Assembly (NCBI GenBank): GCA_965222155.1
Contig: CBDCTH010000004.1
Span: 128,001-192,000 of the forward strand
From: Gammaproteobacteria bacterium
GTDB lineage: Bacteria; Pseudomonadota; Gammaproteobacteria; Eutrophobiales; Eutrophobiaceae
Reading direction: 5' to 3'
Length of the DNA stretch: 64,000 nucleotides
The translations under genes were made by a program, and so were the position numbers. The notes under the pieces are model-generated. The model saw only the letters and a program-made list of their open reading frames with translations, was not told the DNA's origin and searched no databases. Shown piece by piece: positions 1,240-59,401 of this stretch (positions are counted from its first letter, which is position 1; each line of letters begins with the position of its first letter).

Positions 1240-1620
1240 TCAGCGGATCAGTTCTACTGTAATACCCAAATCGAGTGCTGCCCATGCTCGGTCTGCGGTA
1301 AGAACTCTGGCCTGCTCTCGAATTGCCAGGACCAAGCAAGCACGGTCGCCAAGCGACAGGCCCGCATCCCGGGTTGCCGTTCGCATAACACCTGCTGCAA
1401 TCGCAAGGGATTCGTCAAAGGGACAAATCTCAAGACCAAAAGCCAGGAGAGACGCGCGGGCATCTTCTTCGTTTGCTCCCAGGTCAACATACCGTGCAAT
1501 AACCTCGGAGGCATTAACTGCTGATATCATCCCATCGTTCAAAGCTCGCGCCGCAACTTCGGCGCCTTCTTCCTCAAAAGTGATTACCAGCAGTGCGGAA
1601 CTATCGAAGACGATGCTCAT
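1240..1620 (-). CDS. vapC: VapC-family PIN toxin
   Basis: IVFDSSALL, VNASEV, LSLGDRACL, VLTADRAW PIN motifs; overlaps the upstream antitoxin stop. Confidence 0.9.
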   Translation of the reverse strand: MSIVFDSSALLVITFEEEGAEVAARALNDGMISAVNASEVIARYVDLGANEEDARASLLAFGLEICPFDESLAIAAGVMRTATRDAGLSLGDRACLVLAIREQARVLTADRAWAALDLGITVELIR

Positions 1621-20838: not shown

Positions 20839-20874
20839 AATTCCGCGTAATATCCTTTACCATTCTGGCCTGTA

Positions 20875-21110
20875 TACAGGTTTCCAGCCGGTGAATTGAA
20901 CTGCCGACTGGATTAACGGGAAGCCTGGTGAGTTCTTGCGAACGATTCCAGCACTGCCCCCGCAACGGTGATCAGCCTGGTCCCGGACGTTACCACTGTG
21001 CTGGTCCGGATGTCTCAATAAGTGATACATCCGGGCCTGGAGCATGGGAAGGTGTTCGGGACGTTGATTGGCAACAATCAGCGCTGATAGTCCGGAGACC
21101 GACCTGGATG
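20875..21110 (+). ncRNA. Cobalamin (B12) riboswitch
   Basis: aacgggaa..ggtg, ctgcccccgcaacggt, ccactg...gggaagg, agtccggagacc B12-box elements upstream of btuB. Confidence 0.92.
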
Positions 21111-21246
21111 CATCATTCGTCCGGGTTACATTCCCGGTACGGTAATGACATGTTGCGGAGGGCGGCATTGGGTATTTGTTCTGCTCCACTTCCCCTCTTT
21201 GCTACTGTCTGAATTCGTTCACGCGATATTCAACGGGAGTGAAGAT

Positions 21247-41728: not shown

Positions 41729-42343
41729 CTATGTTGTTGCCCTGCCACGATAGAGTTGTTTATTCAGCTTTTCCAGGTCGGTGGGAACATCCAGATCGAA
41801 TTCAGCTTCGGGGATGGGGATTGTCCTGACCCGGCCGGGATTATTTTGTAACACGGATTTTGCCCCCGCATCACCTTTAAGCGCCAGGAGTTGCGGATAA
41901 AATTCATCAGGAATAACGGCCGGTGTGCCCAGGGTATCGGCATAGCCGCTGGCAATGAACCTGGACGGGTCGTCAATCCACAAGTCTGTCAGCTGGCGCA
42001 GGTGATCTTCTGTGACCAAGACCTGGTCGCACATGGTGATCATGACACCATGGCAGCCCGGTTCAAGGCTGTCTATACCTGCCTTGAGCGAGGATGCCAG
42101 TCCTTCTTGCCAATGCACGTTGTAAATGAGGTTTACCGGCAAGTCGCTGATCGCCTGCGCCACCGATTCCGAGTTGGCTCCGACGACAACGCTGATCCTG
42201 TCATGGGGGAACAGTGACGAGAGTTTGTCGACGGCAAGCCGGACCAGGCTGGAGCCGTTTATTTTGATGAGTTGTTTACACTGGCCGTACCTGCTGGAAC
42301 CGCCCGCGGCAAGGACTATGGCTGATAATTCCCTGGTAAGCAT
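41729..42343 (-). CDS. MocA/MobA-like nucleotidyltransferase
   Basis: IVLAAGGSSRYGQCKQL, WQEGLASSL, GDAGAK, DLDVPTD. Confidence 0.88.
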   Translation of the reverse strand: MLTRELSAIVLAAGGSSRYGQCKQLIKINGSSLVRLAVDKLSSLFPHDRISVVVGANSESVAQAISDLPVNLIYNVHWQEGLASSLKAGIDSLEPGCHGVMITMCDQVLVTEDHLRQLTDLWIDDPSRFIASGYADTLGTPAVIPDEFYPQLLALKGDAGAKSVLQNNPGRVRTIPIPEAEFDLDVPTDLEKLNKQLYRGRATT

Positions 42344-42514
42344 AAATGCATCATGATGAAGAAAAATGTTGCTGTCAAAAAGAGTTGCATCAATTTGCAA
42401 TGAAAGCAGGCAGCTTTGATTTTCGACAGGCGCTTTGATTCCTGCTTATCTGTTCCTGACAAATCATAACATTTAACGATTGACGTTTAACGCTATTCGT
42501 TATATTATTGCTGC

Positions 42515-42793
42515 ATGATTAAGCACTTTGCCTGCAAGCGCACGGAAGCCCTGTTTGGTGGGCATTGTCCGCGACAATTTCGAGCATTTCGGGCACAGGC
42601 AGAGCGAAAATTACAGATGCTGAATAGTGCTGTTCATATTGATGATTTGCGATTCCCGCCCGGCAATCGGCTAGAGAAACTCGGGGGCGACCGGGAAGGA
42701 CAGTGGAGTATACGGCTAAACCGGCAGTGGCGATTGTGCTTTGTCTTCAATGACGGTAAGGCAACCGATGTTGAGATTACAGATTACCACTAG
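42515..42793 (+). CDS. higB: HigB (RelE-family) toxin
   Basis: DLRFPPGNRLEKLGGDREGQWSIRLNRQWRLCF...VEITDYH. Confidence 0.95.
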   Translation: MIKHFACKRTEALFGGHCPRQFRAFRAQAERKLQMLNSAVHIDDLRFPPGNRLEKLGGDREGQWSIRLNRQWRLCFVFNDGKATDVEITDYH

Positions 42794-42803
42794 GAGAAAT
42801 TCC

Positions 42804-43145
42804 ATGACTGTTAATAAAATGAGGCCCATACATCCCGGTGAAATCCTACGGGAGGAGTTTTTGATACCTACAGGTATGACTGCTAACGCCCTGGCAAGGG
42901 CATTAAGGGTTAATGCCCCACGCATCAATGACATAGTGCGGGAACAGCGCGGCATTACGCCGGACACCGCCCTGAGATTGGCAGCATTTTTACAGACCTC
43001 GCCCGAATTCTGGTTGAACCTGCAAACAGCTTATGACTTGAAGGTAGCCGATGCGGCGAAAGGTAAAACCATACGCGCTGAAATCGTGCCGCGGCAAATG
43101 CAGACAGAAGAAAACCGGACATCAATGCGGGTGGAAAGCAGATGA
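42804..43145 (+). CDS. higA: HigA antitoxin
   Basis: PIHPGEILREEFL, ITPDTALRL, FWLNLQTAYDL. Confidence 0.95.
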   Translation: MTVNKMRPIHPGEILREEFLIPTGMTANALARALRVNAPRINDIVREQRGITPDTALRLAAFLQTSPEFWLNLQTAYDLKVADAAKGKTIRAEIVPRQMQTEENRTSMRVESR

Positions 43146-43426
43146 TCCCTCAAGAAACAGTGGGTAGTGCAAGTAACCAAACATGAATTATCAAGTCTCT
43201 ATGACGAACCGCCAAGACTTATCCGTATTATGTCGGTGAGCGATTATTTTTCAGCAAGTGCCATACAGCTATTCGTTTGGTTCGTCTTTGTAATATTTTG
43301 AAATTACAGAGAGTTCCGGAAAATAATTGAAAATCAATAATGGAAGACTAGCAGATGATAAAATGTTTTTCTCACCAGCATGGATATAGAGGAACGGATG
43401 TAGAAATCACGGTCCGCAATGATGTG

Positions 43427-43475
43427 ACCGTACCTGCTCGATCCTCCTGCCGCCAGGACTAGAGCGGATAATTCC
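43427..43475 (-). pseudogene. Diverged copy of the 5' end of the mocA-like gene
   Basis: Translates ELSALVLAAGGSSRYG versus ELSAIVLAAGGSSRYG in the intact gene, with several synonymous differences. Confidence 0.75.
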
Positions 43476-43521
43476 ATTACCTGTTTTGACCTGGTCACAA
43501 TCATCTGGTAGTGGTCTGTTG

Positions 43522-43956
43522 TCAAGAGGCCAACGGAAACCGGCAATCCAAACCGGGAAAACGTCGGAAATCCTGATCTGCCGTATGTACTTCGGCTTGA
43601 TGCGAAATTGCAAATTCAGCGATTTGAGCATCGGTGACCATATTGCCTCCCGAAGACCCCACCGCAGCAAGTAGTTCCAGTACGTGACGGGTGTGCCGGG
43701 CAGTTGGATAAAGCGTCTGCGTGATTTGGCGATCATGCCAGGACTCGACGATCTGTGTAGCCTGTATTAGTGATAAAGGATGTTCAAATGCACGGTGATT
43801 AGTGCTGATTCGAACAAAGGCAAATATAACGGGGTGACAAAGCCCGACGGGAACGGAGCCATTCAGACAACCTGACCACCATTGTTTAGCAGCGCTATGA
43901 AAAGGACTTGTTGAGTCGACCGCATACAGCAACAGGTTTGCATCCGGCACGATCAT
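43522..43956 (-). CDS. vapC: VapC-family PIN toxin (mycobacterial-like subtype)
   Basis: PDANLLLYA, FVRISTN, VTDAQIA, TADQDFRRFPGL. Confidence 0.92.
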   Translation of the reverse strand: MIVPDANLLLYAVDSTSPFHSAAKQWWSGCLNGSVPVGLCHPVIFAFVRISTNHRAFEHPLSLIQATQIVESWHDRQITQTLYPTARHTRHVLELLAAVGSSGGNMVTDAQIAEFAISHQAEVHTADQDFRRFPGLDCRFPLAS

Positions 43957-44237
43957 CCGGGTGGGGACTGATTACCCAAACGGCGTGAAAGAGCAAGGAA
44001 AGCATCCACTTCCAAATCGTCATTGAGGGAATTGATGTGGGCAGGATCGTAGCCGCTGCGAAGACCCATCGGAAATGACTGTTGGACAAAAGACGTTTTA
44101 TCGGTATCACAAAGCAAGTCTGCAAGCCCCCTGGTAACAGCCTGGTTCAACGTTTCCTTGAAACTCTGCCCGCGCTGGTGCATAGCTTCACGGAGCAGGC
44201 GTTCGGTTTCCGGTTCCAATGTTACTGTAGTACGCAT
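43953..44237 (-). CDS. vapB: RHH-type VapB antitoxin
   Basis: MRTTVTLEPE...SFKETLNQAVTRGL; overlaps the vapC start. Confidence 0.88.
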   Translation of the reverse strand: MRTTVTLEPETERLLREAMHQRGQSFKETLNQAVTRGLADLLCDTDKTSFVQQSFPMGLRSGYDPAHINSLNDDLEVDAFLALSRRLGNQSPPG

Positions 44238-44341
44238 AAGATACATAATGATGTAAATATTATTTGCTGTCAAGATGATGATCTTAAACGTGATGATCTT
44301 AAACGTATAATATAGAAATTCGGAATGGATTTGTGCCGCCA

Positions 44342-44549
44342 GCGGGAACAGCGCGGCATTACGCCGGACACCGCCCTGAGATTGGCAGCATTTTTACGGA
44401 CCTCGCCTGAATTCTGGTTGAACTTGCAAACAGCTTATGACTTGAAGGTAGCAGAAGCTGCGGAAGGTAAAATCATACGCGCAGAAATTGTGCCGCTCCA
44501 TACACAGACAGAAGAAAATCAGACATCTATTCGGGCGGAAAGCAGGTGA
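44342..44549 (+). pseudogene. higA: 3' half of a second higA copy
   Basis: Closely matches 42938-43145 (REQRGITPDTALRL...ESR); lacks the N-terminal part. Confidence 0.85.
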
Positions 44550-44644
44550 CTCCTATGCGGCATATCCCACACAAGTACGGAAGCAAGCTGAATCTCATCG
44601 GTTTTCCGGGAACAGGATACAGGTATCCTCTTTTTTCGCCAAAA

Positions 44645-44706
44645 TGTGACTTTTCTCACAATTCAGTTAATTCTTCGCTTTCCAATTCATCTCGCCCGAG
44701 TAAAAT
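44645..44706 (+). promoter_or_regulatory. Perfect CRP-type box plus -10 element at class-I spacing
   Basis: TGTGA-cttttc-TCACA at 44645-44660; TAAAAT at 44701-44706; box centre ~61 bp upstream of the predicted +1 (44713/44714). Confidence 0.65.
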
Positions 44707-44713
44707 TATCATT

Positions 44714-44986
44714 GCCATAGGGAAACAAGGCGGCGGTCAATCCAGGCTGAACGGGACTGAACACCCTGACGCCAGATGATCGGTCGAATGGAATTCGATA
44801 ATTCTGTTGTTTGTTGAGTGCCTTCATGCCTGAGGGTGGCCCGGTTAGTAGTCTCCAGGGCCAGGGATCAGGGACAGCCCGAGGGCGCCAAGGGGGGCGG
44901 TGTTTCATCTGCTGCTGATATTGCTGCGCCGCCCCCCTTTGGCAGAGGCATGACCAGTCGCCGCTCCGGCAAACCTCTTCCTTATG
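44714..44986 (+). ncRNA. Candidate structured non-coding RNA of unrecognised family
   Basis: Nested pairings 44716-44724/44978-44986, 44729-44737/44957-44965, 44824-44831/44946-44953, 44887-44902/44927-44943, plus local hairpins; no convincing CDS. Confidence 0.55.
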
Positions 44987-45118
44987 ATTCCCGACTTCGG
45001 CGGTGTCCATACCGTCTATTTGTTAATAACACCTCCAAATTCAATATAGGCACTACGATAACCTATCTGTAATACGATGACACTCAATTCCGCTGTCAGC
45101 TCCGAACCCGTCACTCTT

Positions 45119-46045
45119 TCATTTTTTGGTGTTGTATCGCGTTTGTTCTTCAAGCACCCTGTCTATTCCCCTCATCCAATTCAGATCTTTTCCAATGACC
45201 AGCTCGGTCATTGCAGCGTGATGAGTATTTTTCATTGAGATAGGTTTGACTTGAAACCCGTACTGTTTGGACAGTTCCTTAACCTCAGAGGTATTATCGT
45301 AGGTCATTATAAAATCTCCCTTAATTGATGTACATAACTCAAACAAGGTCCCATGATCCAGTTCATAATGCGTATATAAACGACTGCCCGCCTTTTTACC
45401 GCCGGCGGTGTATGGTGGATCCATGAAAAACACTGCCCCGGGAAAGTCCTTATACTGATTAATAACCTCGAAAGCGTCACCATGCTTAAATCGGAGCTTA
45501 CTGACTATTTGATTGATATCTCTCAGCCTCTTTGCAAGTGTGCTTGGATACCATCTCGAAAGAATACCTTTTCCACTTTCTCCGTTTTTGAGAAAGCCTG
45601 AGCCTGCTGCCAGGATACCGCCGTGGAAGGTTCTGTTTTTTATTATGGTTTGGAATGCCTTCTCTTTCTGACACCTCCTTTTTTTTCGGAGCTCGGCGAC
45701 GGCATTATCTTTTGTCATTTCAAAAGTAAGAATCCTTCTCGCAAGCCATTCTGCCTCGCCATCAACTATGGTTTGCCAGACTGCCGCAATCTCTTCGTCT
45801 AACTCAACCATAAGAGCATTTTCCACCAAATATTCAAACACAGCTGTCAGTGACACGATCCCGCCTCCAACAAATGGTTCAACCAATACTTCCGGTTTTG
45901 AGGATTGGCTGAGAAGCCATTCGCGCAGTCTTGGAATAAACCACGTTTTACCTCCCGGGTAGCGAAATGGACTACGCTGTGGAACAGAGGCTACATTCAC
46001 TACTTTCAAAGGTTCAAGTTCATCACTGAAAAGTAGTCTCTGCAT
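45119..46045 (-). CDS. DNA methyltransferase (Dam/D12-like, DPPY)
   Basis: SPFRYPGGK, VEPFVGGG, FMDPPY. Confidence 0.9.
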   Translation of the reverse strand: MQRLLFSDELEPLKVVNVASVPQRSPFRYPGGKTWFIPRLREWLLSQSSKPEVLVEPFVGGGIVSLTAVFEYLVENALMVELDEEIAAVWQTIVDGEAEWLARRILTFEMTKDNAVAELRKKRRCQKEKAFQTIIKNRTFHGGILAAGSGFLKNGESGKGILSRWYPSTLAKRLRDINQIVSKLRFKHGDAFEVINQYKDFPGAVFFMDPPYTAGGKKAGSRLYTHYELDHGTLFELCTSIKGDFIMTYDNTSEVKELSKQYGFQVKPISMKNTHHAAMTELVIGKDLNWMRGIDRVLEEQTRYNTKK

Positions 46046-46046
46046 A

Positions 46047-46608
46047 TTACCCGCCTCCGAAGGGGCTCTCAATGGTATTGTTGACAGGAAGACTCTCCAG
46101 CTTTTCATCTACCTTTGATTGAAGTAGATTCATGAATTTCTCCACCTTTCCAATCTTCGGCTTTGTTATGGTGTTCAGAGCATTAATAAATTTAGTGTAG
46201 ACAACCTTGAATTTCCGGTGATCCGAAATCGTAGACTTTTCCTGCATCGTTGTAAGCCACGAGAACTACATCAATATTTCCAGCAGAGTTTCCGTAGTAA
46301 TCGACTAATCTTACCTCTGTGAGGGAGGTCCATGTCGAATCAGGACCAAAGAAAAAATCTGCTGCATCATCTGCAATAAGCCAATTCTCACGGAATCTTA
46401 TGGGACAGGTGATTACAGGATTCTTTCCATGTAATATACTGCACACGCCAAGTGGATCCTTGGCCTTGTCTTTCGTACAACTTGGAACTTTGTTGTTAAA
46501 GGGACAGAGTTTATTTTTTCGAAAGCGCGTCGCCTTCAAGCTGAAATCTGTTGGTAAATGTCCAAAAATTTCTGCGAGTGGTTGGCTCTATTCTTTCATT
46601 TCTGCCAT
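46047..46608 (-). pseudogene. NotI-like type II restriction endonuclease, inactivated
   Basis: MAEMKE*SQPLAEIFG...CPF...CTKDK...GVCS...CPIRF...EVRL...GNIDVVLV...EIQG, then a frame change to VVYTKF; TAG at 46588-46590. Confidence 0.75.
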
Positions 46609-46793
46609 GGGTTGCTCAGCTTCTTGGTTCTTTAACTATACAGAGAATAAACTCCTTCTGAAAGGTCATTTGAATAGTAGTAGCAGCTCCCGCTAACTGG
46701 ATTGAAAGAGAGTTTTCATTCCGAAAAATCACATTCCGAAAAACCAATCGACACCCAACCCTTTGATTTAGTAAACTGTACAGACATTGGTCA

Positions 46794-59311: not shown

Positions 59312-59401
<90 letters not shown>

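Follow-up and report, generated by a model that had tools for sequence, protein, structure and literature searches.

A predicted multicopy structured RNA family of a single gammaproteobacterial genus, preceded by a conserved CRP-type box

What does a perfect CRP-type box control when the next gene converges on it from the other strand? This question is raised by a locus around positions 44,645 to 44,986 of a 64,000-nucleotide (nt) stretch from a Gammaproteobacteria bacterium (GenBank assembly GCA_965222155.1, contig CBDCTH010000004.1, positions 128,001 to 192,000). The whole stretch is called the window here, and the genome that carries it is G000. An earlier reading made from the letters alone (the sequence-only reading) had proposed a structured non-coding RNA at this locus. 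Comparison with related genomes indicates that the window copy is one paralogue of a genus-specific, multicopy and previously undescribed structured RNA family, whose members each appear to have their own promoter. What such an RNA would do is addressed below, where confidence a little above even is placed in a stand-alone RNA gene that is activated by a CRP-type regulator and acts through an unpaired bulge on a partner.

The box claimed in the sequence-only reading is plainly legible, with half-sites TGTGA (44645-49) and TCACA (44656-60) about a centre at 44652.5, and the palindrome is prolonged by its flanks in the order A-run, box, T-run. The claimed TAAAAT -10 hexamer is likewise present at 44701-44706. 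The box centre lies 48.5 base pairs (bp) ahead of this hexamer, which places it at -60.5 or -61.5 if transcription starts at the predicted 44713 or 44714; in class I CRP-dependent promoters the site is centred near -61.5 from the start. Taken alone, the promoter scan is weak (2 sites against 0.8 +/- 0.9 in shuffles), and a lone exact box is not above chance, with five in the 4.55-Mb genome, two of which belong to the RNA family, against about four expected by simple arithmetic. The box owes its significance to conservation across the copies and not to any single exact occurrence: it is present within 259 nt upstream in 44 of the 46 copies examined, giving 43 distinct promoter sequences with at most one mismatch each, in which it can also be read as TGTGAG-N4-CTCACA. 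In the ungapped rows of the promoter alignment, the -10 hexamer column is constant at 56 nt past the first box base. One of the two copies without a box (L035) has a transposase gene immediately upstream. The assignment of a CRP-type promoter is well founded when the comEA loci and the CRP-like protein described below are taken with these alignments. The contrast in composition that had been noted also holds, with a GC fraction of 0.56-0.60 in the segment against 0.43-0.46 in the flanks (genome mean 0.529). A 277-nt stretch of it folds at -120.6 kcal/mol on the + strand (z = -2.81; 1 of 200 shuffles was as stable), the - strand giving z = -2.13.

Comparison of the copies defines a conserved core of ~130 nt that folds as a three-way junction (Table 1). 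RNAalifold recovered the main helices unaided from a full-length alignment (A1). In a MAFFT alignment that was not fitted to a structure (A2), 83.4% of cells were paired and 46 compensatory cells were counted against 20.5 +/- 3.8 in shuffles, none of 500 of which reached as high. A model-fitted alignment of 44 distinct sequences (A3) gave 89% of cells paired and 19 of 38 pairs with changes on both sides, with none of 500 shuffles matching any of five measures, pair counts that fitting to the model structure biases in its favour; sliding the partners by 1-3 columns lowered the pairing to 33-54%. Because G.U cells exceed A.C cells (100 against 32, of 1562), the RNA is read from the + strand, which is also the direction of the promoter. 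The earlier claim of a structured RNA is borne out by this covariation, and two of its proposed elements reappear in the family comparison, the ~16-bp GC stem as P8 and the hairpin at 44838-44862 as P7. Others do not: the supposed hairpin at 44877-44886 is the 3' strand of P6, paired with 44828-37, and UCAUGCCU/AGGCAUGA are complementary strands whose pairing clashes with P6, the family favouring P5 at that point.

The bulge that separates P7 from the 3' strand of P6 is almost invariant. It has the consensus A-N-GGAUCA-R-GGACA with two GGA motifs 7 nt apart; 12 of its 14 positions are invariant or nearly so across the 44 distinct sequences. The tandem G.A/A.G pairs within P6 are replaced by G-C/C-G in 4-7 of these 44 sequences. 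A mutual-information scan of A3 also picked out columns 10 and 54 (window 44824/44864), which form a two-state Watson-Crick pair (G-C in 21 sequences, C-G in 14); the first is the last column of P5 and the second the variable position of the bulge, and their correlation reflects either a tertiary pair or subfamily history, which are indistinguishable here.

A DNA search of G000 returned partial copies and two full paralogues (C12:883116 and C12:724406), and two short stubs in the same genome (L003 and L004) retain nothing beyond the promoter and the initial ~60 nt. A first sampling of 61 relatives gave matches in 20 of 22 genomes of the same genus and in none of 38 others. We then relied on a covariance model (R1) built from 28 copies of the conserved 3' part (alignment A2) and a hand-written structure, the E-values of which are rough owing to a short calibration. 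R1 detected three copies in G000 (the window copy at 138.8 bits) and 1-9 copies per genome in 19 of the other 22 genomes of the genus, with no match in any of the 103 genomes from 33 other genera of the same family, in a search whose filters are stricter above 40 genomes; the order-level set consists of the same 126 genomes as the family-level set and brought no additions. A pattern scan over one genome per species yielded 50 stretches, 30 of which R1 confirmed at 83-140 bits. All of these are titled 'MAG: Gammaproteobacteria bacterium' except L088, labelled 'uncultured Enterobacteriaceae bacterium', the sequence of which is identical to locus L014 of genus genome G011; the remaining 20 are chance matches in unrelated phyla. 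The scan of metagenomes gave 34 stretches, three of them true (84-140 bits) and two weak ones at 25.8 bits that are treated as chance after pattern preselection. Three matches in viral contigs were not confirmed by R1, and blastn against plasmid and phage records found no match. A divergent subfamily in G003 and G008 keeps P5, P7 and P8 and has a shorter bulge, GCGUUAAGGAUAAC, with one GGA.

At gathering score, Rfam 15 matched only two elements in the whole window, both elsewhere: a cobalamin riboswitch aptamer at 20861-21121 (+; 74.3 bits against a gathering score of 31.5) and an 87-nt tRNA with a long extra arm at 59312-59398 (+; 58.6 bits). At E <= 10, the interval 44400-45200 drew ES239 at 20.5 bits (cut-off 62), mir-9201 at 14.5 (95.5) and SMCR2_1 at 13.5 (50). 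These scores agree with the earlier statement that the class is undescribed, novelty being judged here against Rfam 15 and a limited literature search.

The key independent control for the box and promoter layout is comEA. A box with at most one mismatch lies 116-150 nt ahead of the start codon at 24 of 24 comEA-like (HHH_3) loci, in 23 of 23 genus genomes, and these promoters, including those of the three genus genomes without an RNA match, closely resemble the RNA promoters. G000 encodes one Crp-family protein over the Pfam cut-off (domains cNMP_binding and HTH_Crp_2), with the recognition helix THREAITRE; its R-E-x-x-x-R pattern is the one that reads TGTGA in E. coli CRP. Because its top NCBIfam match, CRP, scores 59 bits against a 266-bit equivalog cut-off, the predicted regulator is called CRP-like and not a proven CRP. 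A class I cyclase was not found in a search of the genome, and the CRP-like gene itself directly follows an open reading frame (ORF) with a class III cyclase domain. Within the genus, 21 of the 22 other genomes have an orthologue of the regulator, against 7 of the 103 from other genera, related genomes being non-independent samples.

Box-like sites occur at other places in G000. One of them, TGTGACTTTTCCCACA at C12:2145346 (L129 ~1800-1815), lies 48 nt past the stop codon of the CRP-like gene, has a -10-like TAGACT ~37 nt from its start, which is a class II-like distance, and is followed by a 21-codon ORF whose ribosome-binding site, AGGAGG, is strong. Further sets of sites (C4:618557; C10:91419 and C8:5932; C12:1741584) precede an 83-amino-acid (aa) membrane ORF accompanied by a DsbC-like gene, and small ORFs that encode a transmembrane segment and a coiled coil; the genes behind them may belong to the same regulon.

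Table 1. Coordinates of the features discussed (window positions unless a genome and contig are given)
Feature	Coordinates	Strand	Remarks
CRP-type box TGTGACTTTTCTCACA	44645..44660	+	perfect TGTGA-N6-TCACA; A/T runs on both sides
Sigma-70-like promoter	44679..44706	+	TTTCCA, 16-nt spacer, TAAAAT (44701-06); predicted start ~44713-44714
Accessory 5' domain	44713..44817	+	P1, P2, P3, U-rich linker; from alignment A1 and single-sequence folds
P1	44714-16 / 44729-31	+	loop GGGAAAC
P2	~44733-44783	+	variable hairpin; single-sequence folds alone
P3	44784-44798	+	GGA loop
Conserved core	44818..44951	+	~130-nt three-way junction: P5, P6, P7, bulge, P8
P5	44818-24 (GUGCCUU) / 44945-51 (GAGGCAU)	+	closes junction
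P6	44828-37 (GCCUGAGGGU) / 44877-86 (GCCCGAGGGC)	+	10 bp; tandem G.A/A.G mid-helix
P7	44838-62	+	hairpin
Bulge AGGGAUCAGGGACA	44863..44876	+	14 nt, single-stranded, purine-rich; between P7 and 3' strand of P6
P8	44887-44943	+	long GC hairpin
3' tail	44952..45024	+	not conserved; holds partners of proposed outer helices (44957-65, 44978-86)
Terminator-like hairpin	44999-45016	+	then UAUUUGUU; 1 site against 0.9 +/- 0.9 in shuffles, not significant
Strain-specific 4.4-kb islet	42333..46737		HigB/HigA, VapB-like/PIN, HigA fragment, RNA gene, D12 methyltransferase (Pfam)
CRP-like regulator gene	G000:C12:2144561-2145298		directly after class III cyclase-domain ORF
RNA/Uma2-like tandem arrays	G010:C3:1145184-1148044; G005:C1:1992066-1999445; G018:C2:4449004-4478907
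Divergent RNA subfamily	G003:C1:424996-425125, 427834-427966; G008:C6:496249, 498602		29-34 bits; same box upstream

Outside the core the conservation fades. The window copy has an accessory 5' domain, in which P1 and P3 show no covariation in the family alignment; the hairpin proposed at 44784-44798 (P3) stands as conserved sequence and lacks this support as a helix. Three copies (L067, L080 and L082) have no 5' domain, and in them the junction begins a few bases past the -10 hexamer. The long-range pairing of CCCUGA (44764-69) with UCAGGG falls away, CCCUGA lying in a variable loop that is missing from other copies. Of the outer helices in the sequence-only reading, both are complementary as claimed, and neither extends to the family: CAUAGGGAA (44716-24) with UUCCUUAUG (44978-86) is not conserved across it, and GGCGGCGGU with GUCGCCGCU relies on 3' sequence beyond the conserved unit. 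A 5'/3' duplex ranks in the best 5% of 40 shuffles for only 6 of 39 copies, with z = -1.36 for the window copy. A size of ~270 nt closed by a terminal helix is not a feature of the family, the conserved core of which spans ~130 nt.

In the reading that we favour, a nucleotide-bound CRP-like regulator at the box ~61 bp upstream would recruit RNA polymerase, as in class I activation, and transcription would start at ~44713, so that the RNA would be made together with comEA, whose promoter is arranged in the same way. The transcript would fold into the three-way junction, closed by P5 and with P6-P7 and P8 as its arms, and would display the invariant purine-rich bulge, held between GC helices, as a probable contact surface; the ~100-nt 5' domain of the window copy would add two more GGA loops. 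The RNA would then act in trans via the bulge, binding a protein or another RNA. The comparison itself shows the family and its distribution, the fold and its strand, the conserved box and the promoter in common with comEA; from the sequences we infer transcription, activation by the CRP-like regulator, the nucleotide involved (cAMP or another), the 3' end and the existence of a partner. At the computational level, the proposal of a stand-alone, possibly cAMP-regulated RNA survives, carried by the converging gene, the conserved box, the comEA box and the CRP-like protein encoded next to a cyclase gene.

Several observations weigh against this reading, in addition to the bias in A3 mentioned above. 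A same-strand ORF starts within ~400 nt in 24 of the 37 annotated copies, which also fits a leader. Three of 22 genus genomes hold the regulator and the comEA box without an RNA match, and in those three the RNA is therefore dispensable. The GGA motif is not enriched, the window RNA having five, about the composition expectation by arithmetic, and minimal copies only two. Finally, a terminator-like site lies within 250 nt in only 6 of 44 distinct copies, and no intrinsic terminator is conserved.

The strongest competing explanation, unlikely yet to be taken seriously, is a cis-acting 5' leader, that is a riboswitch or sensor whose junction, as aptamer or protein-binding leader, would control the genes that follow in the transcript. 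The same-strand ORFs and the rarity of terminators would both suit it, as would the minimal copies at the core locus, which start the junction within a few bases of the predicted start and in which the 3' strand of P5 could form an alternative GGAUAU/AUAUCC hairpin, followed by GUAUUUG. However, the downstream genes are unrelated, encoding PIN, DUF3782/Hjc-like, ParE and DUF6338 proteins, a GFO oxidoreductase, a glycosyltransferase, a small membrane ORF or proS, and no conserved expression platform was found. The core locus is the site where, in 10 annotated genomes, a copy lies beside a divergent ilvB-like TPP-enzyme gene and/or upstream of proS. The copy there looks ancestral; in G000 it is the paralogue at C12:724406, and three further copies have the core-locus downstream sequence in common. 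A membrane ORF of 56-72 aa, with its own -10-like hexamer ahead, sometimes lies between the RNA and proS, and at L063 a separate TTGACA/TATAAT promoter, located beyond the RNA, precedes proS. The RNA appears to be independent of downstream genes because 13 of the 37 annotated copies, including that in the window, face a converging gene, and because at the L080 core locus a TGnTATAAA-type -10-like hexamer separates the RNA from the next ORF. The earlier remark that no same-strand gene follows is right for the window, where the next gene (45119-46108) encodes a D12-class DNA methyltransferase on the minus strand and converges on the RNA gene, and wrong for about two thirds of the copies, which do have a same-strand gene.

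If the stand-alone reading is correct, CsrA is the only concrete candidate for the partner, a leading but weak one in which we place little confidence. It is a candidate because GGA supplies the most conserved unpaired bases, with four motifs both conserved and unpaired, because csrA is present (once) in G000, and because no known sponge RNA was found: genome-wide, the CsrB, PrrB_RsmZ and RsmY models gave at best 13.7, 15.4 and 20.2 bits, all below their cut-offs and none at the locus. It is weak because GGA is unenriched, minimal copies keep just two motifs and the site upstream differs from the GacA type. About as doubtful is the extended proposal that the RNA, as a functional RNA of a new class, belongs to a competence programme controlled by cyclic nucleotide and CRP and is produced along with the DNA receptor ComEA, its bulge controlling or cooperating with the nucleases or toxins (Uma2/PDC-S17-like, PIN, PD-(D/E)XK) next to which the additional copies have spread; if true, this would couple DNA uptake to self-protection or defence.

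Such neighbours are common away from the core locus, where copies lie in variable regions, among polysaccharide-synthesis clusters and toxin-antitoxin or defence genes (PIN, ParE, HEPN, AAA_14-DUF4143, DUF3782/Hjc-like, AbiEii-like). This raises a further explanation, improbable in our judgement, in which the RNA simply works with the nuclease or toxin genes beside it, either by antisense or antitoxin-like action or as the RNA cofactor of Uma2-like (PDC-S17-like), PIN or similar proteins. Arrays inside polysaccharide-synthesis clusters of G005, G010 and G018 are built of RNA genes and 272-aa Uma2-like genes in alternation, with a unit of ~1.35 kb in G010; the Uma2-like gene, encoded on the strand opposite the box, starts ~21-55 nt from it and stops 19-131 nt from the RNA core, and the protein matches PADLOC PDC-S17 (E ~1e-10). 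The window copy sits among HigBA, VapBC and methyltransferase genes. Yet of the 16 loci that carry a close Uma2-like gene, only 9 have the RNA within 1.5 kb, core-locus copies by the ilvB-like gene or proS lack such a neighbour, and the window copy has no Uma2-like gene. A literature search limited to these topics found nothing relevant on Uma2 with non-coding RNA or defence and nothing on PDC-S17.

The islet that holds the window copy is missing between a mobA-like gene and carA in G019, G020 and G022, where the flanks are 40-158 nt apart. It contains nested direct repeats, 42282-42332/43425-43475 (80%), 42346-83/44241-78 (71%) and 42938-43150/44342-44554 (89%), the last of which duplicates the HigA C-terminus, a pattern that suggests serial insertion of toxin-antitoxin cassettes at this one site. 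The D12-class adenine methyltransferase at 45119-46108 (-) matches PADLOC PD-Lambda-5_B (E = 6e-39), and no ORF of at least 130 aa lies between it and carA, so there is no sizeable partner gene there, short ORFs not having been scanned.

This insertion with its repeats, the several copies per genome, many of them in variable islets and tandem arrays, and the truncated promoter stubs L003 and L004 would also be expected of a DNA-level repeat, that is a mobile promoter cassette or recombination site with an incidental RNA fold. We consider this very improbable, as compensatory changes preserve the helices and the excess of G.U over A.C is strand-specific; moreover, neither terminal inverted repeats nor target duplications were seen around the unit, a syntenic core copy is common to many genomes, and the plasmid, phage and viral collections gave no match. 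Other repeats were observed in these genomes: six copies of a ~90-nt repeat starting TTGTGG(G/A)TTTTATCACAAATC (G000:C4:418525-426751 and C12:466972), tandem REP-like palindromic units of ~43 nt (ATTCTGGCATTTGCCGGAATGACGACAG...) at L004 ~1290-1470 (-) and in the flanks of L003 and L005, and a second palindromic repeat (GGGGTCAGAGTAAAAATAC...) near RNA copies and proS. That the minus-strand ORF 44687-45010 (107 aa) or a plus-strand ORF is a real protein-coding gene can practically be dismissed: an ORF does exist, and in most copies the GC-rich core can be read through in several frames, but these are open together, as GC-rich DNA predicts, the 107-aa ORF has no Pfam hit, variation tracks base pairs and not codons, and the check for codon-type conservation gave no conserved frame, core lengths taking 18 distinct values in the range of 121-143 nt, which leave every remainder modulo 3 (10/14/20).

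If the RNA is expressed, it would represent a new, clearly delimited RNA family, whose fold is solidly supported by covariation and whose regulation can be approached through an unusually clear feature, a canonical CRP-type promoter that it shares with comEA across a whole genus for which the public records found are all metagenome-assembled genomes. The family would offer a testable entry into the role of the CRP-like regulon in these organisms, and binding studies would have a concrete target in the invariant bulge, which is flanked by GC helices with tandem G.A pairs. Why copies of a structured RNA should have accumulated in islets of defence, toxin-antitoxin and polysaccharide genes is a further question that it raises. 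Given its narrow distribution, the family matters for the present as a good new orphan motif among RNAs.

Among known systems, three-way-junction riboswitches (TPP, purine) share the compact junction and invariant unpaired stretch, and their placement at 5' ends is matched by the minimal copies; in contrast, the genes downstream of this RNA have no common function and are absent in about one third of copies, no expression platform is conserved, and none of the Rfam riboswitch models matches the RNA locus. There is a faint likeness to the CsrB/RsmX/RsmY/RsmZ RNAs, which are likewise multicopy and present GGA in loops or single strands, as the P1 and P3 loops and the bulge (twice) do here, but this RNA has only 2-5 such motifs without enrichment, those of the bulge being just 7 nt apart, and it has no terminator and no model match. 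In GacA/UvrY-type upstream palindromes the hexamers are 6 bp apart, whereas the box described here has CRP spacing. The CRP-dependent competence promoters of gammaproteobacteria, such as those of comEA in Haemophilus and Vibrio, offer a further parallel, as in the genus studied here both box and promoter layout are common to comEA and the RNA; the sites here differ in being canonical TGTGA half-sites and not TGCGA-type CRP-S sites, and no structured RNA is known to belong to CRP-dependent competence regulons. In its regulation the RNA would resemble the small RNA genes of enterobacteria that CRP activates, CyaR being an example, as it would likewise be a stand-alone RNA gene with a sigma-70 promoter dependent on a TGTGA-N6-TCACA site and an output linked to a cyclic nucleotide. 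Compared with CyaR, this RNA has no sequence or structure match in Rfam and no conserved terminator with U tail, and it is larger, multicopy, built on a three-way junction and confined to one genus. Falling outside each of the families tested, it is probably best described as a new family of a known kind, the regulated bacterial small RNA gene.

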